From sequence record PZ445488.1: DNA of 64,000 nucleotides; one strand, written 5' to 3'. Source of the DNA: a phage. Positions 750-59,807 of this stretch are shown here, one piece after another. A model generated the notes under the pieces. It was not told the DNA's origin. It did no database searches and worked only from the letters and a program-made list of their open reading frames with translations. The position numbers and the translations under genes were made by a program. Position 1 is the first letter of the stretch. Each line of letters starts with the position of its first letter.

Positions 750-1382
750 TCACAGTACGTTAGTTACAAGGGTAATGATTTCTTTAGACACATTAGGGAA
801 GTCAATGTAAGTATATTTACCACCGATCTTAATCTTAACATCATTTTCAAGAGAAGTAAACAGCTTTGATTCAGTTTCTGACATGTTGTATGCAAAGATT
901 CTAAGAGCGCCATCTCGTCGAATTTCAATTTGGCGAATGCCTAGAACTCGTTTAGCGAATCGAACTTCTAAGTTACTACGGTTTTCACCAATTTCTTTAA
1001 CTTCAACTTTATCTTTAATATTTTCAAAAACAAAGTTTGCTAATTCATGCATTTCAGGAGTAACTCCACGTGCTTTTCTGGTGTTACGTTTCTGAAGAAG
1101 TTCTGGAGCATTTTCTTGAGCAAATAGGTCTGCAGCTTTTTGGATAATATCCATTGCTTCGCCGGTTGCCACAAGTCCATCACCAGATTTTTCGACTAAA
1201 CCTTTCTTAATCAATACACCAATGTTAGAGTTAACAACTGATGCATTGTATTCTGCTTCCAGAGCTTCACGGACATTGGCAGCAGTGGTGAAGTTGTTCT
1301 TAATGATATAAACCATTATTGCAGCAGTTTTTTCATTCAGAGTGTTTTCAGAAGCTTTGATGATGTAAGTAACTTTAGACAT
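750..1382 (-). CDS. motA: MotA, activator of middle transcription
   Basis: 210 aa; N-terminus MSKVTYIIKAS...NSNIGVLIKKGLVEKSGDG...AQENAPELL matches recalled T4 MotA (211 aa); adjacent to gene 52 as in T4. Confidence 0.8.
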   Translation of the reverse strand: MSKVTYIIKASENTLNEKTAAIMVYIIKNNFTTAANVREALEAEYNASVVNSNIGVLIKKGLVEKSGDGLVATGEAMDIIQKAADLFAQENAPELLQKRNTRKARGVTPEMHELANFVFENIKDKVEVKEIGENRSNLEVRFAKRVLGIRQIEIRRDGALRIFAYNMSETESKLFTSLENDVKIKIGGKYTYIDFPNVSKEIITLVTNVL

Positions 1383-10260: not shown

Positions 10261-10294
10261 TTATTAAAATTAAAATGAAGCTCCCGAAGGAGCT
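10261..10294 (-). terminator. stem-loop terminator downstream of the topoisomerase gene
   Basis: agctcc-cgaa-ggagct hairpin (10279-10294) then U-rich UCAUUUUAAUUUU on the minus-strand RNA. Confidence 0.45.
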
Positions 10295-12129
10295 TAGGAC
10301 ATCCATTCTTTACGAAGTTCTGAATCATCACCCAACAACATTTCAAAGAGTTCTTTCCAATTTTCAGGAAGTTTAACTACGTCGTACACAGGGTTCTGAA
10401 TCATTTCACGATACTCTGACTTTTCAAGGGAGCCCAATCCCTTGATGTATCGAATACTATGCTTAGGCAGCGTATCTTTAACTTCTTCATACTCAGCTAC
10501 AGTATAAAACCATTTTTGAGTTTTGCCAATTTGTGCAATAATTACAGGTGTTTTAACAAAGCGAATACGTCCTTGTTCAAACAATTCAGGCCAATTACTA
10601 AAGAAAGCAAGCAAAGCAGGATAAATACTTCCAAGGCCGTCATGATCGGCATCGGTCATAATTGCAATATTACGATAGTTCGTATTCTCTGCCTTTTCAC
10701 CAAGAATAAGACCTGTGATAGCACAGATATCAAAGAGCTCTTTGTTCTTCATCATATCAGCATATGACATACCCCAGCTATTCATCACCTTACCACGTAA
10801 TGGGAATCCGCCGTGTAGTTCACGGTCACGAACATCAATGAGATAACCAATTGCCGAATCACCTTCTGTTAAGAACAATGTCGTATCTGCATCTTTACCA
10901 CATTGGTTAGCTTTAATATGCTTATGAACCTTAGCTTTAGTTGCCTTTTTAGCTGCTTTAGTTTCTGCGGCCTTTTCTGCTGCCAATTTACGAGCTAATG
11001 CTGCTTCAATTATAGGCATTAAAACTGCTTCAGAATTCAAAATATTTTTTGCCAATTTTTTGGTATCTAATTTAATATGCGTCCGAATTTCGCCATAAGG
11101 ACTTGTTAAACGCTCTTTGGTTTGGGAATCAAAACGAAGGTTCTTCATTCCACGAACGAACATTAAGAGAGTGAGACATTCCTTGATGCGCGCTTTAGTC
11201 ACGTCGATTTTATATTTGCGTTTAATAGCCGGAATTAATTCTTCGCAAATGTCGTCCATCACACATTCAATGTGATGACCGCCATTTTTGGTATGGATGT
11301 TATTAACATAAGTTAAATGACGGAAGCCATCTGGTGACCGACCAATGGCAATAGAGCATCCATCTTGTTCTTGAATGACGGTCTCTTCATCAAATTGTTT
11401 AGCAAACTTCTTAAAGTTACCTTTAATCCTTTTGCCATTAAATTTAAATTCAATACCAGGATAAACGACTGCCAATGTTTGGAGCCGGTCTATAGTAATA
11501 TCTTGGTATATTTTTTCAAATTGATTCATTTCAAAATGAGAGAAATCAGGAATAAACTCGACCTTAGTCCCGTTGTTTTTAGACGGCTTAGATTTCCAAG
11601 AAATATTATCAGCATTATTAGAACAATTAACTGTCAATTCGTTTTTACCATCTGAAGTAGTGCCAACAAAAGAGACAGAAAAAATATTTGTTAATGAAGA
11701 ACCGACACCGTTTTGTCCACCCGTAACACGTTCTTTGTCGTCACCAAAGTTGCCACCAGCTTTTGTACGTGTCCACGCCGCAACTGGTCCTGGAATTTCT
11801 TCTCCTTCAGGAGTAATAACTGTTTCTTGAGGAATACCTCGTCCATTATCTTCAACAGTCACTTTATTAGAATTTAAATCAATACTAACAGAAATTTTAT
11901 TAGCATATTTGAAATTGGTTCGAATAGCTTCATCTACCGAGTTGTCAATAATTTCATCAATTAATTTGAGAACACCTGCAACATATTTAACCTTTTTAAA
12001 TTCACCGAATAGGAAACGTTCTTGTTCTTCATTGGCAACACTTCCAATATACATGCCAGGACGCTTCAAACAATGCTCTTTATCAGATAGCATTTCAATT
12101 TTATTATCAATCATTAGATTTTCTCTCAA
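10294..12129 (-). CDS. 39: DNA topoisomerase II large subunit, GyrB-like ATPase + Toprim (single fused 39/60-type gene)
   Basis: 611 aa continuous ORF with GyrB-like ATPase N-terminus; in T4 this function is split into genes 39 and 60. Confidence 0.85.
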   Translation of the reverse strand: MRENLMIDNKIEMLSDKEHCLKRPGMYIGSVANEEQERFLFGEFKKVKYVAGVLKLIDEIIDNSVDEAIRTNFKYANKISVSIDLNSNKVTVEDNGRGIPQETVITPEGEEIPGPVAAWTRTKAGGNFGDDKERVTGGQNGVGSSLTNIFSVSFVGTTSDGKNELTVNCSNNADNISWKSKPSKNNGTKVEFIPDFSHFEMNQFEKIYQDITIDRLQTLAVVYPGIEFKFNGKRIKGNFKKFAKQFDEETVIQEQDGCSIAIGRSPDGFRHLTYVNNIHTKNGGHHIECVMDDICEELIPAIKRKYKIDVTKARIKECLTLLMFVRGMKNLRFDSQTKERLTSPYGEIRTHIKLDTKKLAKNILNSEAVLMPIIEAALARKLAAEKAAETKAAKKATKAKVHKHIKANQCGKDADTTLFLTEGDSAIGYLIDVRDRELHGGFPLRGKVMNSWGMSYADMMKNKELFDICAITGLILGEKAENTNYRNIAIMTDADHDGLGSIYPALLAFFSNWPELFEQGRIRFVKTPVIIAQIGKTQKWFYTVAEYEEVKDTLPKHSIRYIKGLGSLEKSEYREMIQNPVYDVVKLPENWKELFEMLLGDDSELRKEWMS

Positions 12130-12790
12130 ATTGCATGACTATATTTTTGTATGAACCTTCCGGAAATCCACGTTTAACGCTTTCTTTAGCAAATTTACCG
12201 ACCTTTGGTTTATCCAATTCTAACCATAATTTATATAAAGAAGATTCATATTCCCATACAGGACTTTTACGATTTTTAAGCCCACACTTTATAAGCGCTT
12301 CCTTTGTATGTTTCTTATTATAAAATGGATTGTTTTTGCCACTCATTGCTTTAGAATGTTCAGGGCGCTTAATTCCATACATCGGATTAAGATCGCCTTT
12401 CTTGATAATTGATTGTAGTTCAATAGTTTCTTCAGAGTGATTGTGTCCATAAAATGGATTTAACTCTTTTGAAACATCCATACCAAAGCACCCATCGACT
12501 GTGGCATAAGACATGTTGAAAAATTTTTCAGATTTAACCACATTATGCAATTTCTGGTAATACAACTCACAAAACGTCGCTTCTTCACGTGTATCAAATT
12601 CGCCAATAATACATGAATCAAATAAATGAGGATTATCTTTTATCTCTTTATCATAAATTTGTTTATATTTTTTCGACTTTACCGTACCATGATAGTAACT
12701 GTTTGTATGTTTATCAAGATAAGTAGACCCTATATAAAACGGTGGCAACTTATCGCCTGTGTATATTGTTAAGTATGTTATGTATTTCAT
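12107..12790 (-). CDS. GIY-YIG homing endonuclease (Seg-like) with NUMOD3 repeats
   Basis: 227 aa; YITYLTIYTGDKLPPFYIGST...YHG GIY-YIG core plus three NPxYG..HSEET-type repeats; 3' end overlaps the first 23 nt of gene 39. Confidence 0.75.
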   Translation of the reverse strand: MKYITYLTIYTGDKLPPFYIGSTYLDKHTNSYYHGTVKSKKYKQIYDKEIKDNPHLFDSCIIGEFDTREEATFCELYYQKLHNVVKSEKFFNMSYATVDGCFGMDVSKELNPFYGHNHSEETIELQSIIKKGDLNPMYGIKRPEHSKAMSGKNNPFYNKKHTKEALIKCGLKNRKSPVWEYESSLYKLWLELDKPKVGKFAKESVKRGFPEGSYKNIVMQFERKSND

Positions 12791-12824
12791 AAAGGTATTC
12801 TATCATCCGAAATCTAAAGCAAAA
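12791..12824 (-). promoter_or_regulatory. putative MotA-dependent middle promoter
   Basis: Minus strand TGCTTTA (MotA box) - 12 nt - TAGAAT; the same GCTTTA...CGGATGATAGAAT block recurs upstream of gene 47. Confidence 0.4.
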
Positions 12825-12838
12825 AGGGCCGAAGCCCT
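12811..12838 (-). terminator. stem-loop terminator
   Basis: agggc-cgaa-gccct hairpin then UUUUUGCUUU on the minus-strand RNA. Confidence 0.45.
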
Positions 12839-13260
12839 TATTTAAATTTAATTTTCTGAAGTGCATCAATTGCAGCCAGACGCCCTTGTTCACTTTTAAC
12901 TGTAATGACCACATCACCTGATACGATCACCGAACCATCAACAAATTCTATAGAGCCTTTTTTGAAATCAACTGACGTAGGTTCCGGAACTTCTTCAAAG
13001 AATTTAAATTCTGCACCATAAAGCAGAATATCACCTTGCATACTATGAATAGTTCGGCCATAATCGCCTACGGCTTCTACAGCAATAACCGAAACGCCGT
13101 AACCAATCATCTCTTCCACAATAAAATCTTTGGACAATAAAGTAGTATGCAGATTAGTATTAAGACGTTTACCAGTCGTATTAAGAATTCTCAAGAAATT
13201 ATCTTCTTGTCCTTTGATAATACGATATTTCTTACCAACTTCAAAACCTTTAAAAGCCAT
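12838..13260 (-). CDS. hypothetical protein (140 aa)
   Basis: Track ORF, operon strand. Confidence 0.45.
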   Translation of the reverse strand: MAFKGFEVGKKYRIIKGQEDNFLRILNTTGKRLNTNLHTTLLSKDFIVEEMIGYGVSVIAVEAVGDYGRTIHSMQGDILLYGAEFKFFEEVPEPTSVDFKKGSIEFVDGSVIVSGDVVITVKSEQGRLAAIDALQKIKFK

Positions 13261-36455: not shown

Positions 36456-37087
36456 TGTTCGCCTCGTAACATGGCACCTAGTGCACCACCAGGGTGGAAC
36501 TTAAGGAAGTCATTAGAGGTAAATCCGCGTTCAGACGAAAGGTTGATAGCGAACGTATCGATAAGCGCTAACAACAATGTAGTGGACATTGTAGGAGCCA
36601 GAGAATTCTCATCAACCTCTACCGCGATACCGGTACAGAATGTATAATCAAAAAGAGCTTCGTATTCTTGTGGAATGTCCGGGTTACAATGCAACAGAAT
36701 CTGTTTGACATTTGGACGAATCATTTTAAGATGCTTAGCCACGCCTATCATTTCTTCAGTCTTACCAGAACGACTAATATGAATCAACACATCATTAGGC
36801 GCAATGAATCCTGCATCACCGTGAGAATAATGCCCAGTGTTCAAGTACATACTCGGGATACCGAGCGAAGCAAATGTCTCAGAAGCTTTAGTTGCAATAT
36901 TAGCATTCTTACCAACACCTGTAATAATTACTCGGCTTTCATAATTACTAAGTCCAGGGCGTCGAAGAGTTTCTAGAATAGCATTATAACGAGCAGGGTT
37001 TTGACTAATTACTTTGGCCATAGCGGCCAAAGAAGAAGCTTGTTTTATGATTGCGTCAATAGCGATAGTAATAGGAGTAGTTTTCAT
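36452..37087 (-). CDS. SIS-domain sugar-phosphate isomerase, KdsD/GutQ-like arabinose-5-phosphate isomerase (no CBS domains)
   Basis: 211 aa; TGVGKNANIATKASETFASLGIPS...HGDAGF...ISRSGKTEE...LAPTMSTT...RGFT.NDF..HPGGALG aligns block-for-block with recalled E. coli KdsD SIS domain. Confidence 0.7.
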   Translation of the reverse strand: MKTTPITIAIDAIIKQASSLAAMAKVISQNPARYNAILETLRRPGLSNYESRVIITGVGKNANIATKASETFASLGIPSMYLNTGHYSHGDAGFIAPNDVLIHISRSGKTEEMIGVAKHLKMIRPNVKQILLHCNPDIPQEYEALFDYTFCTGIAVEVDENSLAPTMSTTLLLALIDTFAINLSSERGFTSNDFLKFHPGGALGAMLRGEQ

Positions 37088-37127: not shown

Positions 37128-39839
37128 TCAAAAATCGAACATATCGAACAGAGATGCTTTCTTCTCGTAATCGAGTTTCGCTGCTGATGTGAATCCTTCA
37201 AGTGGTTTAATAAATGTCTTCTCAAGGAGAACAGTGTAGTCCATCCAATGAAGTACGTCGTCTTTAATTAAATCTGTGATTTCAGTACCAGAAGGCCATG
37301 CGATACATTTATCACCGAATGGGTTTCCATCACGTAAAGGCAGAACGTATACCTTTTCGCCTTCTACAACTTGTGGAGCATCAATATTACCTTTGATAGC
37401 TCTGTTATATGTCAGAATTCCACGAATATGGAACGGGCATTTAGGACCAGGGAATCCACCAACGTCATATTTAGCAATGTTATTCGCAGAAGATACCGAC
37501 GCGATGCTAATATAATTCAATTGACGGAATTCTTTTTCAAACTCTTTAAAATATTCTTGTAATGATTCTTCACCTTCTTGAAGCATACGACGAATACATT
37601 CTTTAAGAGCTTTCTGTACTGCTTTAGGGGTCGAAGATTTCTGTGTTTCGAGACCCATGATTTTGAGTTTAGGCTCAGCGTATCTGGTTCCTTCCATATC
37701 CCACACGTTTAATGCATAACGTTTCTTACCAGTCCAGAATCCACCAATACCTTTAGAACCGAGTGGAGGACCAGCAATAGCTTCTCGGTCCATGAACATC
37801 AAATGTTGCTTATTATTCATGTATTCACACATTTCACGGAAACCTCTATCAATAGCCGGTTCCATACGTTCACGAGCAAACTTATCTAAGAAGTCTACCC
37901 AATGGTTGGTATCACGGAATTTAGATTCACCAACCTTATCGATAATTTTATCAGCAGATACGTAAATAGAGTCTGTATCACCATAAAGAACGAAAGCTTC
38001 ACCTTCTGTACCACAAACTTCATTCAGATATTCATTAACTTTACGTTCAATCCACTGTAAAGCCATTTGCCCGAATGTTGTGATTGCAGTAGCATTACGC
38101 AAATCATAATAACGGAACCAAACGTTACCAAGTGCACCATAAAGCGAGTTGATGAGCAATTTACGGTTAATTTGTGCAGTCATACCTGCAACTTCAGTAC
38201 GTTGAGCTCTAAACAACATTTCATTAAGAGATTTAGCAGACAACTTTTTAATCTTTTCTTTAATCTCGTCAGTGAAGTCGAAACGATAATCAACATCTAA
38301 TGGTTCGTCAACAGAAAGATTAGGATTATGTAACGCCTCTTTAATTATTTCACCATTACGTTGAGCCGCAAGCATATAACCTTTATGTTCTTTACGTTGA
38401 TTAAAGACCTTAGTGATTTCAGTTGGAACTACACCATCACGGTCTTTATAATACATCATGCCGTTAGGAGAGCAACTGTACACATCTGAAGGACGTTCAG
38501 CGATTGCGTTAATATAATCATGCAATGGAGCTACTTTAAACGTTCCTGCTATTGTTTCTGGGCTAATATTCACTTGGCGAATAATACTTGGATACAGAGA
38601 TGTAAGGTCGAAACTCATTACATATTTGTATCGATTTGGAATAGGTTCCTTAACAAAAGCGCCAGGATAAGGTTGAACCGGGTGAGAACGACCTTGTGGA
38701 ATCACCTTGTTCTGCTCTTTAAGGCTATTAAAAATAATAGCATCCCATGTTTTAATTGGGCTGAACACAGATTGAATCTGTATCTTAGCATAATAACCCA
38801 TGTCCAAACTCAAGTTGATGAACTGGCGCTTAGCATCAATTTGCAATACACGATACACGTCGATAATGTTATAAGAAATATATCGTTGGTGATTGCTTTC
38901 ACGAAGCTTAGAAATAGGGCCGTCATATTTCAGTTTACCGACATTCAATTCAAATTCTGAAATGTAATCCAGAGAATACGACGGTTGGTTTGTGAAAGAG
39001 AATTTTTTGTAAAGGTCAATGTAATCAAGAACAGAAATACCGAACAATGTAATGATTTCACGAGAACCATACATGTTTTCGATAACTTTAACACGAGTTT
39101 TACGATGTGGTGATAAACGTTTCGCAGTAGATTCGCCAAAAATATTCTTGATTCGGTTATACACATATGGAATATCAAATGACTCAACGTTCCATCCGGT
39201 TAAAATGACAGGAGTTTTCTGTTGCCAGAAGTTGAGATATTCCATCAACAATTCTTTTTCGTTATCGAACGGCATATAAATGATTTTATCGATAATTTCG
39301 GATGGAACTTCATCACCACCTTGTTCTTGAAGCTTAGCCGCAATTTCGATAGACCATTCTTCTACATTACCATATGGAGAATTCAAAAGGTCGAATACGT
39401 AGAACCTGTCGTCAATTGAGTCATAATGGGTGATAGCATCAATCGGATGTTTTGCTTGTGACGGCTCAGGGAACCCATCCGGAGATGTTACTTCGATATC
39501 GAAGTTAGCCACACGAATTTTTGTATGGTCGTATTTGATTTCATAGTTATAAGTGTCAGACAAATACGACAATTTGAAATCGTCCATACCTAATGCTTCA
39601 AGACCGATATCTTCCATGCGTTTAATCCATTGGGAGGCATCACGCATATTAGCGAACAACTTACGAGTACACGGCTTACCGTAGATATCGAAATATTTCG
39701 TAGCCTGACTTTCTGGACAATGAGCAAACAATGATGGTTTATATTCTACTTCACGAGTACGTTCACGGCCATTAGAATCGATGTAACGTTCAAAAATTGA
39801 ATCACCAATCTGTTCAACCGTTAAGTAAAATTCTTTCAT
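37128..39839 (-). CDS. 43: DNA polymerase (family B) with 3'-5' exonuclease
   Basis: 903 aa (T4 gp43 898 aa); YGDTDS polymerase motif C and SLYPS motif A; uninterrupted. Confidence 0.9.
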   Translation of the reverse strand: MKEFYLTVEQIGDSIFERYIDSNGRERTREVEYKPSLFAHCPESQATKYFDIYGKPCTRKLFANMRDASQWIKRMEDIGLEALGMDDFKLSYLSDTYNYEIKYDHTKIRVANFDIEVTSPDGFPEPSQAKHPIDAITHYDSIDDRFYVFDLLNSPYGNVEEWSIEIAAKLQEQGGDEVPSEIIDKIIYMPFDNEKELLMEYLNFWQQKTPVILTGWNVESFDIPYVYNRIKNIFGESTAKRLSPHRKTRVKVIENMYGSREIITLFGISVLDYIDLYKKFSFTNQPSYSLDYISEFELNVGKLKYDGPISKLRESNHQRYISYNIIDVYRVLQIDAKRQFINLSLDMGYYAKIQIQSVFSPIKTWDAIIFNSLKEQNKVIPQGRSHPVQPYPGAFVKEPIPNRYKYVMSFDLTSLYPSIIRQVNISPETIAGTFKVAPLHDYINAIAERPSDVYSCSPNGMMYYKDRDGVVPTEITKVFNQRKEHKGYMLAAQRNGEIIKEALHNPNLSVDEPLDVDYRFDFTDEIKEKIKKLSAKSLNEMLFRAQRTEVAGMTAQINRKLLINSLYGALGNVWFRYYDLRNATAITTFGQMALQWIERKVNEYLNEVCGTEGEAFVLYGDTDSIYVSADKIIDKVGESKFRDTNHWVDFLDKFARERMEPAIDRGFREMCEYMNNKQHLMFMDREAIAGPPLGSKGIGGFWTGKKRYALNVWDMEGTRYAEPKLKIMGLETQKSSTPKAVQKALKECIRRMLQEGEESLQEYFKEFEKEFRQLNYISIASVSSANNIAKYDVGGFPGPKCPFHIRGILTYNRAIKGNIDAPQVVEGEKVYVLPLRDGNPFGDKCIAWPSGTEITDLIKDDVLHWMDYTVLLEKTFIKPLEGFTSAAKLDYEKKASLFDMFDF

Positions 39840-39915: not shown

Positions 39916-39920
39916 TTGCT

Positions 39921-40298
39921 TTAATTACCAATTGTATATTTTGCTTTCAAAGTCCAGTCATCTTTCTGTTTAAAAGAGATAACACGGAAGTTATTAGTCA
40001 GGCCAAACAGATCTTCACGAGCAGAGTCTTCAATAACAATCAAGCCCCAGTCTTCAAGCAACTGAGCAATCGAATCACGACGCTGATAGTCTTCACCATC
40101 AATATCAACCTGACGTCCATCCATACGCAACATTTCTTTAAAGTGGACAATATAGTACTTACCTTGCTTTTGGAGGATATGACAAGACTGGTAAAGGACT
40201 TTATCTTTGTTATTAGCGATGCCCATACGGGTTAGAGTCTCTTTGACTTTCAGAAAATCTTCAGGGTTCTTCAATTTAATTTCAATCATTTTTACCAT
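39921..40298 (-). CDS. regA: RegA translational repressor
   Basis: 125 aa; [28 protein letters not shown]...[15 protein letters not shown]...[11 protein letters not shown] matches recalled T4 RegA. Confidence 0.8.
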
Positions 40299-43253: not shown

Positions 43254-43295
43254 TTAATTTGATGTGGTCATTATAACCACATCGTGTTAAAGCGT

Positions 43296-44984
43296 TTATG
43301 AAACAGTCATTACCGTAAATCGTCCAACTTTGCTCATCTGAAGATGTTGTCCATAACGTTGAGGGTCATGGTCTCGATGAGAGATAATGAACACATTAGT
43401 ATTTTGTAAACTTCCAAGAATGGTATCTATAGCCTTAACAGCCTCAGAATCGACAGCACCATCAAAAACCTCATCAAGAATCAGAGTGTTGATTTTAACG
43501 CCAGAGACCTTTTCAGCAATATCTCGCCATGTAAACAACAATGCGATATCGATACGTGCCTTTTCACCTTGACTAAATGAAGCATAACTGAACTCTTCAC
43601 GGCCACGTGATTTTATAGATTCATTGAATTCTTCGTCAATAGAAAACACGTAATCAGCTTCCATGATTTTAAGATAGTGGTTAATCTGCTTGTTGAACAG
43701 AGGCACATATTTTTTAATGATAGCACCTTTAATACCAGAATCTTTTAACATATCTGTGATAATACCACGATGGTATTTTTCAAGAACGATATCCGATTTT
43801 GTTTTAATGATTTTATCAAGTTCTTTTTGAAGCAAAGCTATCTCATCGGCGTGGTCGATAAATTCCGCCGAGGCTTGCTCTATTGCAGCTTTAACTTTCT
43901 TAGCTTTATCAATAGTGGCAATCATTGCTTGTTTCTTGGTACGGATATCGGATGCAAGGTCCTGTTTAGTCTTAACATTAGCTCGATATTCGTCCACTAG
44001 GACACTCAGATTATCTCTGTGGCAGGTAAGTTGCTCGAATGAGTGATTACATTCATGAAGCTTATCGGTAATCTTAGAGACAATAGGGTCACCCTGGTGC
44101 AACTGTGATGCGCAAGTAGGACATGTACCGCCATCATGATACATCTTAATAACTTTGTTATATGAGTCAATTTTAGATTTAATCAAGAATGCTTCTTGTC
44201 CGATCTTGTTGAATGCCTCAGTAGGGTCTTCGTCAAGAACGATATTAAGTAGACGCTCGTTAGCTTCTTCAATTTCTGCTTTTAATGAACGAGCTTCTTT
44301 GGCTAGGTCGTCATACATATTCTGTAGACGCGCTACATTATCGCCAGATAATTTCTTTTGACGTTCGATATTCTCGTTATAAATCTTAATTTGTTGGATA
44401 ATACCATCTTTCTTGGCATCGAGAACTTGTCCCTGGGAATTAAGTTCTCGAACTTGAGACTTATTGATTTTATCCATTTCAGCTAGTGTTCCAACTTCTA
44501 ATAAGTCTTCAACAAGCTTTCTGCGAGCAGGGGTGCTAAGAGCCATGAAAGGGGTATACCCTGCCGTCCCAAGCACAACGATCTGTTTAAAAGACGCGTA
44601 TGACATTCTGATGCTACGTTCAAATTCTTCTTGGAAGTCACGACTGCTGGCAGATTCATCAAGACGAACACCGTCAACGGAGATTTCGAAAATATTAGGC
44701 TTTTGGCCTCGTTTAATGAAGTATTTTTTATCATCGAATTCCATCCAAAGCTCAACTAAGAGCTCTTTCTTGTTCGTGCTATTAATGATTTGTCCTTTCT
44801 TAACATCACGAAATGGTTTACCGAAAAGTCCGAAAGTAATGGCTTCTAACATCGTAGATTTACCACCGCCATTTTTACCAGTGATTAATGTCTTTTGGAC
44901 TTTATCTAATTGGATATCAATAGGATTCCCACCTACCGACATGATGTTTTGATAACGAACACGATTTAATTTAAATGATTTCAT
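43296..44984 (-). CDS. 46: recombination endonuclease subunit (SbcC/Rad50-like)
   Basis: 562 aa (T4 gp46 560 aa); Walker A GKNGGGKST, coiled-coil middle, C-terminal LILDEVFD Walker B. Confidence 0.85.
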   Translation of the reverse strand: MKSFKLNRVRYQNIMSVGGNPIDIQLDKVQKTLITGKNGGGKSTMLEAITFGLFGKPFRDVKKGQIINSTNKKELLVELWMEFDDKKYFIKRGQKPNIFEISVDGVRLDESASSRDFQEEFERSIRMSYASFKQIVVLGTAGYTPFMALSTPARRKLVEDLLEVGTLAEMDKINKSQVRELNSQGQVLDAKKDGIIQQIKIYNENIERQKKLSGDNVARLQNMYDDLAKEARSLKAEIEEANERLLNIVLDEDPTEAFNKIGQEAFLIKSKIDSYNKVIKMYHDGGTCPTCASQLHQGDPIVSKITDKLHECNHSFEQLTCHRDNLSVLVDEYRANVKTKQDLASDIRTKKQAMIATIDKAKKVKAAIEQASAEFIDHADEIALLQKELDKIIKTKSDIVLEKYHRGIITDMLKDSGIKGAIIKKYVPLFNKQINHYLKIMEADYVFSIDEEFNESIKSRGREEFSYASFSQGEKARIDIALLFTWRDIAEKVSGVKINTLILDEVFDGAVDSEAVKAIDTILGSLQNTNVFIISHRDHDPQRYGQHLQMSKVGRFTVMTVS

Positions 44985-45235: not shown

Positions 45236-45464
45236 TACACGCTTCAGCCATTTTAAGAATAGAGCCAGGAGTATCGTTGTCCATTATATTAAAGCTAAAT
45301 TCAATAGCCCAGTCGGTACAGACATGAACGGCTTTAACTTCATTGCCTTCAACGCGTAATGGCTCAATCCAATACTTGATAGTGTTCTCGAATCCATCAT
45401 CATCTTTAACGTCTATTTCAACTTCAAGCCCGAGCCCAGCATTGTTAAATTCATCTAAAGTCAT
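45207..45464 (-). CDS. hypothetical protein (85 aa)
   Basis: Track ORF between 47 and 46. Confidence 0.4.
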   Translation of the reverse strand: MTLDEFNNAGLGLEVEIDVKDDDGFENTIKYWIEPLRVEGNEVKAVHVCTDWAIEFSFNIMDNDTPGSILKMAEACIEDAYNDED

Positions 45465-46480
45465 TGTGTTGCCTCAATATAAAGTTCGTTGGAATATTTG
45501 ACCAGCGCTTCTCTGTCTTCGTCTGAGATATCTGGAATCGCGTCAATATATTCTTTAATGATATCTTGAAGTGATTTAATCTCGATTTCCTGGTCGTCAT
45601 CAGATTCAACACTGTTATCAACTTTAGAAACCATACGAAGAGAGTGAACTACTTTTTCAAGTTCAGATTCAAACTTAGTCAACTCTGAATCAATTTCTGA
45701 TACTATAACACGTACGGCTAGATTAGTATAATCAGAATAATTAATTTTGCCTTTAAACGGATAAGTGATTCGTCGATGCCATGTTGTTTCATTAGGAATA
45801 AATTCCATACGTTCAACATCAGTGTCAAATACCCAGAATCCGCGCGGATCGTTCTCATCACCTGCAGTAAGGGTCCATGGTGTCCCAATATATTTGACGT
45901 TAGCAGCTTCAGAGATTGTGTGGAAGTGGCCAGACCAGACTTGTTTATAGGTCTTTAAGAAATCAGGTTCAAGCCCATGAGACTTCATTCCTTTATAGAA
46001 ATAAAAACCGTTCAGTTCCCAGTGACCAACACAATACGCAGCAGAAGAAGTCTTGATGTGCTCTAAGATTTCACCTGTATTTTCTTCACACATCCACGGA
46101 ACGATATCGATCAGACATCCGTCAAAATCTACAGTAGTTGGATGTTCGTAAATAGTAAAGTTTTCAAATTGAGTTAACAATTCAGAAACAGTGTTAGGTG
46201 TTATTGTATTCTTAAACGCCATGTCATGGTTTCCTATCGTGACATGAACGTGAATGCCTGCCTTAGAAATCATATCAACGATTTCACGATTGAATTCCAT
46301 TGTACGATGTGTTATTGCTTTACGGACGTCGAACCAATCACCGTACTGAATCCAAGTTTTAATCCCGTGTTTCTTAGAGTATTCAATTGCTTGACGAATA
46401 CCATCGCGTTGAATATCTTGAACCCATGGGTCGTCTTGTTTGACTCCAATATGGAAGTCGCCTAAGTGCAAAATTTTCAT
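45461..46480 (-). CDS. 47: recombination endonuclease subunit (SbcD/Mre11-like phosphoesterase)
   Basis: 339 aa (T4 gp47 339 aa); N-terminal MKILHLGDFH metallophosphatase motif. Confidence 0.85.
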   Translation of the reverse strand: MKILHLGDFHIGVKQDDPWVQDIQRDGIRQAIEYSKKHGIKTWIQYGDWFDVRKAITHRTMEFNREIVDMISKAGIHVHVTIGNHDMAFKNTITPNTVSELLTQFENFTIYEHPTTVDFDGCLIDIVPWMCEENTGEILEHIKTSSAAYCVGHWELNGFYFYKGMKSHGLEPDFLKTYKQVWSGHFHTISEAANVKYIGTPWTLTAGDENDPRGFWVFDTDVERMEFIPNETTWHRRITYPFKGKINYSDYTNLAVRVIVSEIDSELTKFESELEKVVHSLRMVSKVDNSVESDDDQEIEIKSLQDIIKEYIDAIPDISDEDREALVKYSNELYIEATQ

Positions 46481-46497
46481 ATTATTTCCTCATTAGT

Positions 46498-46530
46498 TAA
46501 TTCATTCTATCATCCGTTTATAAAGCAAAA
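46498..46530 (-). promoter_or_regulatory. putative MotA-dependent middle promoter for 47/46
   Basis: Minus strand TGCTTTA - 12 nt - TAGAAT, 22 nt upstream of the gene 47 ATG with GAGGAAA RBS. Confidence 0.5.
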
Positions 46531-46550
46531 AAGGAACTCCGAAGAGTTCC
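46519..46550 (-). terminator. intrinsic terminator
   Basis: Minus-strand RNA AGGAACUC-UUCG-GAGUUCCU followed by UUUUUUGCUUU. Confidence 0.6.
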
Positions 46551-46762
46551 TATCCACATAGTACACCATACAGAGGCTCATTTGAACTTTTAAATCGAAT
46601 GGGCTTGTATGTAATAGTTCCTTCGGCTTTAGCTTTATCATAAGACTCTTTAAAACGTCTCATTCTTTCTGCTTTGCCTTTACGGATTTTATCGAAATTT
46701 TCAGAAGTCGGGATGTTCGTCATGCATAATCACCTCTCAGAAAATACCTAAATCGATTTCTC

Positions 46763-59217: not shown

Positions 59218-59279
59218 AACTATTTCCTCAGATTGAATTGGAACTCAAAACCATTATAACCCGTCCTTGGGTAAAGCGT

Positions 59280-59807
59280 TTATGCGTGAACCGTCTTTAA
59301 ACGTTCTTCAAATTTCCGAAGAGTACTAATACGTTCTGCTTTCTGTTTTGTATAGTTTGCAATACGTTCTGAAGTGAGAGCGTATCGTTCGTTTACTGTT
59401 TCTTTCATGAAGTCAGGGATTTCACGAGAAGCTTTAATTTCATCAAACTTGTCGAGTACTGCCTGGTCTTCAGCGATTAAATTTTCATACATCTCGATAT
59501 CTTTCTTGATAAACTCGATATCTTCCTGAGTTACTTTGGATAAACGAGATGCTTTATCCTTTTTGTACTGCTCGTTAGTTTCACGAGACCAGAATAATGT
59601 ACGTTTTTTGTTAGTGTTTTTGTAGACTTCCACAATTCCAACTGAATCGATGATAACAATCCAATTCCAGCGAGATTTGAAAATCTGACCTCCATCCACG
59701 GTAATCTCGTTACCATAAGCAACGTCATTAAAGAACTTGCTCTGTGCTTCAGATTTAAATTTACCGTCGTTATAATTTACCAGGTTGAAAATATCTTTAG
59801 CGTTCAT
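59280..59807 (-). CDS. hypothetical protein (175 aa)
   Basis: Track ORF with PeSL-like promoter. Confidence 0.45.
   Translation of the reverse strand: MNAKDIFNLVNYNDGKFKSEAQSKFFNDVAYGNEITVDGGQIFKSRWNWIVIIDSVGIVEVYKNTNKKRTLFWSRETNEQYKKDKASRLSKVTQEDIEFIKKDIEMYENLIAEDQAVLDKFDEIKASREIPDFMKETVNERYALTSERIANYTKQKAERISTLRKFEERLKTVHA

Follow-up and report, generated by a model that had tools for sequence, protein, structure and literature searches.

Analyzing a 64,000-nucleotide (nt) stretch of phage DNA (sequence record PZ445488.1; hereafter the window, numbered from its first letter), we found that the promoter block at 12791-12824 (site 1), which directly precedes a putative free-standing homing endonuclease gene, is the ancestral promoter of the topoisomerase gene 39 further downstream, and that the endonuclease open reading frame (ORF) begins just where transcription from this promoter is predicted to start. 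We put the probability of the whole explanation, i.e. composite terminator-MotA cassettes, of which the gene-39 promoter was captured by an endonuclease gene with the transcript starting at its AUG, at about 0.65. A second block (site 2, 46498-46530) lies upstream of gene 47. An earlier note on this DNA had pointed to the two blocks as a shared MotA-box plus -10 module; its coordinates and motif are right, both sites being read on the minus strand, which holds every gene around them. The window comes from an RB69-like T-even phage of the genus Mosigvirus; partial records of Escherichia phage CEV1 match both regions at 100% identity, and HX01, RB69 and relatives do so at 96-98%. The coordinates of the features are collected in Table 1.

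The T4 middle-promoter consensus consists of a MotA box, (a/t)(a/t)(a/t)TGCTTtA, near -30, followed after 12 +/- 1 bp by the -10 element TAtaaT (PMC2988021). Searching the window for GCTTTA-N11-13-TANAAT returned 10 matches (0.29 expected), nine of them on the coding strand, and a middle-promoter class is clearly real in this genome. Sites 1 and 2 are both among these matches (TTTTTGCTTTA-N12-TAGAAT, 12797-12825, and TTTTTGCTTTA-N11-TAGAAT, 46504-46532). A scan for the -35/-10 consensus found a conventional sigma-70 promoter at neither site, as expected because MotA-type promoters do without a -35 element, and a late promoter (TATAAATA) was found nowhere within ~600 nt upstream of the endonuclease gene or gene 47. 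The window itself holds motA, and RB69 is reported to have asiA (PMC1524935). Because of their boxes, their spacings, their extended -10 elements, the motA gene in the window and their counterparts in T4 and RB69, both blocks are very probably MotA-dependent middle promoters, as had been proposed in the earlier note; for the phage of the window, the dependence on MotA is what we infer from these features.

Indeed, the counterparts are close. P39 (start 5349) and P47 (start 36576) of T4 have been mapped (Guild 1988; Hsu & Karam 1990; tabulated in Hinton 2010, PMC2988021 Table 1), and they lie at the same loci and show the same parts as the blocks in the window, namely a UUCG hairpin, GCTTTA, 11-12 bp and a -10 element, often with TGn: the T4 DNA reads AAGGCCTTCGGGCCTT-TA-GCTTTA-12 nt-TATAAT upstream of gene 39 and AGGGCTTCGGCCCT-TTA-GCTTTA-12 nt-TATAAT upstream of 47.1/47. 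For RB69, Pm:5538 (ORF005c/gene 39) and Pm:40046 (a-gt.2/gene 47) were already predicted (Nolan et al. 2006, PMC1524935 suppl. 4); the stretch compared is near-identical at both places, with site 1 identical up to the ATG and site 2 differing in one base of the -10 element. Both blocks are the orthologues of two MotA-dependent promoters that have been mapped in T4, P39 and P47; as promoters they are already known in kind and place and add nothing new. The loci differ in what follows the promoter. T4 P39 leads through a 21-nt leader with a Shine-Dalgarno (SD) sequence into gene 39, whereas in the window the endonuclease ORF begins at the position of the T4 transcript start; RB69, unlike the window, has no endonuclease, so Pm:5538 serves gene 39 directly. 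At the other locus T4 has mobB, a-gt and 47.1 between a-gt.2 and P47, and these are absent in the window.

The 227-codon endonuclease ORF is present in only 10 of the 166 related records that match the region, and in the other 156, which have no endonuclease, the match covers only the part from ~12789-12792, i.e. the ATG, upstream. Shf125875 and RB69 match the cassette at every base as far as TAGAATACCTT, after which they read CATAACGAGGAGACAAC-ATG, the SD and start codon of gene 39, so that the cassette leads into ACCTTCATAACGAGGAGACAAC-ATG(39). Because these endonuclease-free relatives have the identical cassette directly before the gene-39 SD, the promoter at site 1 is the ancestral gene-39 promoter and not the endonuclease's own, and the ORF has replaced the gene-39 leader. 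The earlier note was correct in that the promoter directly precedes the endonuclease gene, but the promoter is not specific to it, having been in place before.

Gene 39 itself, a fused 60+39 gene, carries traces of this event. The last 8 nt of the endonuclease ORF extend into the start of gene 39 (ATG at 12114-12112), and 8 nt upstream of this ATG there is GAGAG in place of the strong GAGGAG. Compared with endonuclease-free Mosigvirus genomes, the first ~1140 nt of the gene are 65-80% identical and the last ~680 nt 97-100%, with a sharp mosaic boundary in between; the foreign 5' tract is nearer to Bp7 (77-85% identity) than to RB69. This mosaic is likely the signature of a co-conversion tract (~1.1 kb) that arrived with the endonuclease gene. 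Mechanical ORF calling places the start of gene 39 at an upstream TTG (12129; ORF 10294-12129), an artefact, because the first possible start codon is taken; homology to RB69 and Bp7 puts the start at the ATG, 12114.

The endonuclease is found at the topoisomerase locus of other genera as well, i.e. in Dhakavirus (Bp7, IME281), in Bragavirus (PM2) and in many Klebsiella phages. In the Klebsiella group 130 of 141 relatives are without the endonuclease gene and homology to them stops 29 nt ahead of the ATG, which places the -10 element within the variable cassette. The locus extracts of Mexia (1160-1201) and Roth16 (855-917) have the same hairpin plus TTAGTTGTTTAC, followed by different cassettes, and the Roth16 ORF in the endonuclease slot (starting MIIGMTTAQRRAKRH...) has its own -10-like hexamer (TATTAT), SD and leader; the slot between terminator and topoisomerase gene in these two phages appears to be a swap point for alternative cassettes. 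A 207-aa paralogue of the endonuclease lies between 47.1 and 47 in many Tequatroviruses (e.g. Escherichia phage vB_EcoM_G2540-3, 2495-3118 of the locus extract). The paralogue has 65% identity in the N-terminal domain and a different C-terminus, and its gene overlaps both neighbours: the 47.1 stop with its ATG and the start of gene 47 with its 3' end. Thus both flagged loci are insertion sites of one endonuclease family, in different phages.

The inserted ORF appears to encode a homing endonuclease with a GIY-YIG-like N-terminal domain and NUMOD3 motifs. It contains three NUMOD3 stretches (Pfam NUMOD3, 4.8e-11) and matches PHROG homing-endonuclease families. An assignment of the catalytic domain at the level of sequence was rejected, with Pfam scores below threshold and PDB sequence searches that returned no informative match (only a weak one to TenA, which looks spurious), and a comparison of folds was needed. 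An AlphaFold2 model based on 78 homologues (predicted local distance difference test, pLDDT, 92) had its best PDB matches in the catalytic domain of I-TevI (1MK0/1LN0; probability 0.99/0.97, target template-modelling score 0.64/0.60), followed by the GIY-YIG domain of UvrC; the Foldseek E-values are modest (0.04). The residues Y10, Y19-I20-(G21), E75 and N92 are invariant in the alignment of these homologues. The ratio of non-synonymous to synonymous substitution rates (dN/dS) against homologues is 0.1-0.28, which reflects purifying selection; the endonuclease is therefore functional and must be translated. In several public records the protein is labelled 'HNH endonuclease' or 'hypothetical protein', though the fold is GIY-YIG-like. 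Within the ORF, 35-50 nt from its beginning (12744-12757, minus strand), we also noticed a terminator-like hairpin, GGCGATAAGTTGCC followed by ACCGTTTTAT; it is weak (5 pairs), lies in protein-constrained sequence and recalls the internal terminator reported for mobE.

Where the endonuclease message would begin can be predicted from T4. Transcription from 23 of 27 mapped T4 middle promoters (first 50 kb of the genome), P39 included, begins on the 7th nt past the -10 element, and the initiating base is usually a purine. Counted likewise at site 1, this nucleotide coincides with the A of the endonuclease ATG. The earlier note had rightly placed the -10 element close to this ATG, but the distance is 6 nt and not about 8; its conclusion of a near-leaderless geometry is borne out, as a transcript from the site-1 promoter would have practically no leader and no SD. 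No SD is present in the 25 nt upstream of the ATG (AGATTTCGGATGATAGAATACCTTT-ATG), and folding shows no structure in the initial ~30 nt of the predicted mRNA. The same geometry is found behind promoters different from site 1, namely in the homologues of Bp7 (TGtTATAAT-ACATATT-ATG, 7-nt gap) and Klebsiella phage Mexia (TATAAT-AGCTGT-ATG, 6-nt gap), again with no SD.

A mapped T4 precedent exists in mobB, whose transcript starts at 38682 and whose ATG lies at 38679, leaving a 3-nt leader (AAA) and no SD (T4 38679-38700); this is the sole leader of <11 nt among the 27 promoters. Like the gene in the window, mobB is a free-standing homing endonuclease gene without SD, its ATG lying 8 nt past the -10 element of a hairpin-plus-MotA-box promoter, and it sits right downstream of a-gt.2, i.e. 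at the position of the site-2 promoter of the window. Unlike it, mobB belongs to the HNH family, occupies another locus and has a 3-nt leader as against the predicted 0-nt one. The 2010 review of T4 mobile elements does not discuss mobB as leaderless (PMC2988022). The idea that all T4 endonuclease middle promoters are leaderless was rejected, since the leaders of PsegA, PmobC and PmobD measure 225, 206 and 181 nt and PmobB alone is near-leaderless. The 70S ribosomes of E. coli bind to an AUG at the very 5' end of a message and translate from it, in some cases as strongly as from lambda cI mRNA; in cI mRNA from PRM and other leaderless mRNAs the 5'-terminal AUG acts as the ribosome-binding signal (PMC4965119), a group to which the endonuclease message of the window is predicted to belong. 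Taken together, transcription of the endonuclease gene probably sets in at its own AUG, very nearly as in T4 mobB, and a leaderless endonuclease message is plausible.

We propose that transcripts from upstream largely end at the UUCG-loop hairpin and that RNA polymerase with MotA/AsiA-remodelled sigma-70 restarts transcription ~30 bp beyond it. A GIY-YIG-type endonuclease gene, likely together with ~1.1 kb of donor gene-39 5' sequence, has replaced the gene-39 leader, so that its ATG now lies where transcription is predicted to start. Transcription in the middle mode would then yield a bicistronic endonuclease-39 mRNA starting at, or ~1 nt from, the endonuclease AUG, and the endonuclease would be translated by the leaderless 5'-terminal-AUG route from this promoter-proximal transcript only; on read-through transcripts its AUG would be internal, without SD and poorly translated. 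Gene 39, as second cistron, would be served by the weak SD (GAGAG) in the 3' end of the endonuclease ORF and/or by coupling over the 8-nt overlap.

The earlier note saw in the near-leaderless transcript a way to keep a nuclease dosed low. Such a low-dose rationale is possible, and timing via promoter-proximal translatability would fit the data equally well; a 5'-terminal AUG can be translated reasonably well in E. coli (PMC4965119). More tentatively, and with rather less confidence than we place in the explanation as a whole, we suggest that the endonuclease family at the 5' end of T-even topoisomerase genes carries a built-in arrangement of -10 element, 6-7 nt and AUG without SD, by which promoter-initiated transcripts would be translated and read-through transcripts silent. 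If true, this would time and limit the nuclease with neither an SD nor an RNA structure, T4 mobB may share it, and it would be a third mode of homing-endonuclease control beside sequestration of the ribosome-binding site and translational coupling. I-TevI has likewise been proposed to be translatable solely from transcripts whose start lies shortly upstream of its ORF (PMC2988022); there, however, an RNA hairpin hides the SD on long transcripts, whereas the window has no SD and we found no conserved sequestering structure. A structure of the I-TevI type that hides the AUG on long transcripts was rejected: in the read-through RNA of the window a helix is predicted between the promoter region and endonuclease codons 17-25, but its z is only -1.8 and Bp7 and Mexia have no equivalent.

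Several observations weigh against this explanation. The start is a predicted one, and a shift of 1-2 nt would change the outcome; were it to fall beyond the A, the endonuclease could not be encoded by the promoter-proximal transcript. The Pfam scores for GIY-YIG (E = 0.19) and SegE_GIY-YIG (E = 0.04) are below curated cut-offs. The spacing between -10 element and ATG in three lineages could reflect one inherited ancestral junction and not selection. Furthermore, in IME281 and PM2 the homologues (N-terminus MFIVYLT) follow leaders of the ordinary kind with a strong SD (AAGGAGG or GGAG), so leaderless expression is not obligatory for the endonuclease family. These two homologues also speak for a different explanation, according to which the endonuclease is translated mainly from terminator read-through transcripts by inefficient SD-independent initiation, and the closeness of the -10 element is a by-product of where the gene landed. 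It agrees with this that the site-1 hairpin (12826-12837) is short (4 G-C pairs, -6.3 kcal/mol, z = -2.5), which makes read-through likely, and that in half of the free-standing endonuclease genes of T4 no translation initiation region can be recognised, weak expression being assumed for them (PMC2988022). Nevertheless, we consider translation from read-through transcripts unlikely as the main route: initiation at an internal AUG that lacks an SD is as a rule very inefficient, but purifying selection on the protein is clear; the ATG has been kept 6-7 nt past the -10 element in three lineages with different promoters; the Klebsiella -10 element lies inside the segment that is not shared with endonuclease-free relatives; and T4 mobB has its mapped 3-nt leader.

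The likeness of the two promoters, on which the earlier note had built its shared module, calls for a separate explanation. Both sites have the exact 13-mer CGGATGATAGAAT in common, which occurs nowhere else in the window (~0.003 random occurrences expected). Anchored at the -10 element, this 13-nt run is longer than that of the next-best pair among the nine consensus sites of the window (9 nt) and than the longest such run among 351 pairs of mapped T4 middle promoters (10 nt). Part of the identity is forced by the consensus, i.e. by the MotA box, the TGn extended -10 and the -10 element; TGA-TAnAAT is largely consensus because about half of the T4 middle promoters (13/27) have TGn. What goes beyond the consensus is, by our reading of the sequences, essentially CGG(A) plus the shared G of TAGAAT, and the RB69 gene-47 site, with TAAAAT instead of TAGAAT, has only 12/13 of the 13-mer. 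The excess similarity is thus real but modest (roughly p = 0.01-0.05 allowing for all pairs, by extrapolation). The next-best pair, sites 59277 and 43293, shares 9 nt plus CATAAACGCTTTA, and this second middle-promoter-like pair (59253-59289 and 43270-43305, minus strand) has both CATAAACGCTTTA and GGTTATAATG identical in its two members; with this likeness beyond the consensus, pairwise excess similarity is not unique to the flagged pair.

If both blocks were copies of one mobile cassette, recently duplicated or gene-converted in this phage lineage, perhaps via endonuclease-driven recombination, their 13-nt plus 11-nt identical runs, which exceed all 351 T4 promoter pairs, would be accounted for. 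Both sites are indeed indel boundaries (the endonuclease at site 1, T4 mobB-agt-47.1 at the gene-47 site), a paralogous endonuclease adjoins gene 47 in many Tequatroviruses, and the stem-loop promoter cassettes PeSL and PmSL have been proposed to mediate such shuffling (PMC2839356, PMC4122927). The spacers, however, are conserved per locus in genera as distant as those of T4, SP18 and PG7, and the four genera examined suggest a grouping by locus and not by genome. The T4 spacers contain CCGGAG (P39) and ACGGAG (P47), P47 of SP18 carries CGGGATGATAAAATGAA, reading GCTTTATATTCGGGATGATAAAATGAA, and P39 of PG7 reads GCTTTAAGATTTGAATGTTAGAAT. Within SP18, and likewise within PG7, P39 and P47 are dissimilar, each kept at its own locus, and on these grounds recent duplication or concerted evolution of the cassettes was rejected. 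In the window the hairpins, the spacer lengths (12 vs 11) and the downstream sequences of the two sites are unlike, and RB69 has TAAAAT at the gene-47 site. We therefore regard copying of a mobile cassette as highly improbable, and the view of the block as a module duplicated within the phage does not hold. Because each spacer is old and locus-specific across genera, the resemblance appears to be old and to consist of the consensus plus a small shared CGGA. That CGGA(T/G) in the spacer might be a functional sub-element of some middle promoters, e.g. a contact for the remodelled RNA polymerase or another factor, strikes us as a very faint prospect. It is found in the P39 and P47 spacers of T4 and of the phage of the window and also in T4 PnrdG, i.e. 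in 3/29 T4 promoters vs ~0.5 expected by our own estimate, and several spacers of the window are G/C-rich in a genome of 37% G+C. On the other hand, the pattern was spotted post hoc, its offset from the -10 element varies between T4 P39, T4 P47 and the phage of the window, it is absent in P39 of SP18 and PG7 and in most mapped T4 promoters, and the promoter elements listed in the review of the class are the MotA box, TGn and the -10 only (PMC2988021).

In their overall build both blocks appear to be composite cassettes of a terminator stem-loop and a MotA box, of the type termed PmSL, the Mot-box version of the PeSL terminator stem-loop/promoter cassettes found at indel boundaries of T4-like genomes (Arbiol 2010, PMC2839356; Comeau 2014, PMC4122927). 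As in these, the stem-loop terminator stands immediately before the promoter and both sites are indel boundaries; unlike the two cassettes of the window, which flank core genes and have stems that are not alike, the published examples, from RB49/phi1, PST and nt-1, for the most part carry early promoters and lie in hyperplastic regions. A hairpin is present at only 2/9 consensus middle promoters of the window, its stems differ, and the genera compared give no sign of homogenisation. The site-1 hairpin is identical in HX01, Shf125875 and RB69, and its core is also found in Bp7 and IME281.

Site 2 appears to be an ordinary gene-47 promoter with an SD-containing leader: 23 nt with GAGG separate the -10 element from the gene-47 ATG (46480), the leader runs for a normal ~17 nt from the predicted start near 46497-46498, and the GAGG lies at 46491-46488. 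By position it is the counterpart of both T4 P47 and T4 PmobB, and it resembles a fusion of PmobB (TGCTTTATAAA...) with P47 (...CGGAG..TGATATAAT), which would fit a loss or gain of mobB-agt-47.1 via recombination between two cassettes.

Table 1. Features at and around the two promoter blocks of the window, in window coordinates.
Feature	Position	Strand	Basis and remarks
motA, activator needed for the promoter class	750..1382	-	Pfam MotA_activ 2.3e-39, MotCF 2.2e-08
Gene 39 (fused 60+39 topoisomerase II large subunit)	10294..12114	-	aligned to gene 39 of RB69, Shf125875 and Bp7
Foreign 5' part of gene 39, likely a co-conversion tract	10975..12114	-	identity shift vs endonuclease-free Mosigvirus
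Putative free-standing homing endonuclease gene, 227 aa	12107..12790	-	NUMOD3, PHROG, AlphaFold2 model; no SD
Predicted transcription start, A of endonuclease ATG, T at -1	12790	-	inferred from the 7th-nt rule
ACCTTT between -10 and endonuclease ATG	12796-12791	-	sequence; ATG from 12790
Extended -10 TGA-TAGAAT, 12 bp past the MotA box	12797..12805	-	sequence; TAGAAT at 12802-12797
12-nt spacer GATTTCGGATGA	12814-12803	-	sequence
GCTTTA	12820-12815	-	sequence
MotA box TTTTTGCTTTA of the probable gene-39 middle promoter	12815..12825	-	fits PMC2988021 consensus; RB69 Pm:5538
Hairpin GGGCTTCGGCCC	12837-12826	-	sequence; TTTTT next (12825-12821)
Terminator-like hairpin AAGGGCTTCGGCCCTT, UUCG tetraloop, T-run into MotA box	12824..12839	-	terminator scan
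Upstream ORF, homologue of RB69 ORF005c	12838..13260	-	ORF list, annotation of relatives; stop TAA (12840-12838) abuts terminator hairpin
Gene 47 (SbcD/Mre11-like)	45461..46480	-	ORF list; RB69 annotation, 97% identity
Probable gene-47 middle promoter: TTTTTTGCTTTA, 11-bp spacer, TGA-TAGAAT	46504..46532	-	sequence; RB69 Pm:40046, score 22; T4 comparison
TAGAAT of site 2	46509-46504	-	sequence
11-nt spacer TAAACGGATGA of site 2		-	sequence
MotA box TTTTTTGCTTTA of site 2	46521-46532	-	sequence; includes GCTTTA at 46526-46521
Site-2 hairpin GGAACTCTTCGGAGTTCC	46550-46533	-	sequence; TTTTTT next
Terminator-like hairpin AGGAACTCTTCGGAGTTCCT, UUCG loop, T-run next	46532..46551	-	terminator scan; fold -9.6 kcal/mol, z = -3.25
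a-gt.2 homologue, ORF upstream of site 2	46550..46723	-	ORF list, RB69 annotation

Three further observations were made in passing. The mapped transcript of T4 P55 (40180) begins with AUG: it reads ATGAATTGA, a two-codon 5'-terminal upstream ORF that lies 23 nt before the gene-55 start codon. The annotated ATG of T4 47.1 (36584) falls within the -10 hexamer of P47, ahead of the mapped start at 36576 (T4 36576-36589), so P47 transcripts cannot encode 47.1 from the annotated start. On the plus, non-coding strand of the window, at 39918-39942, GCTTTA-N11/13-TATATT/TATTTT follows right after the complement of a minus-strand terminator hairpin (GGGACCGAAGTCCC); this sole hairpin-adjacent match on the plus strand is probably fortuitous.

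For annotation, the locus is a warning, with a mislabelled endonuclease and a gene 39 that is given a spurious TTG start by ORF callers that take the first start. In the literature searched we found no description of an endonuclease at the 5' end of gene 39, of leaderless expression in connection with homing endonucleases in T4, or of start-site capture at the 5' end of gene 39, for which mobB would be the T4 precedent. What the window seems to hold is a selfish endonuclease gene wedged between an essential gene, 39, and its promoter, where it takes over the transcription start; gene 39 would be forced into the position of a second cistron with a weaker ribosome-binding site, and the endonuclease itself probably depends on leaderless translation. 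Should this be borne out, along with the case of T4 mobB, it would provide a simple rule for the expression of some free-standing homing endonucleases, a question that the 2010 review calls unresolved for half of the T4 endonuclease genes (PMC2988022). Such endonuclease genes would then also be lost less easily, since any deletion has to re-create a functional leader for gene 39.

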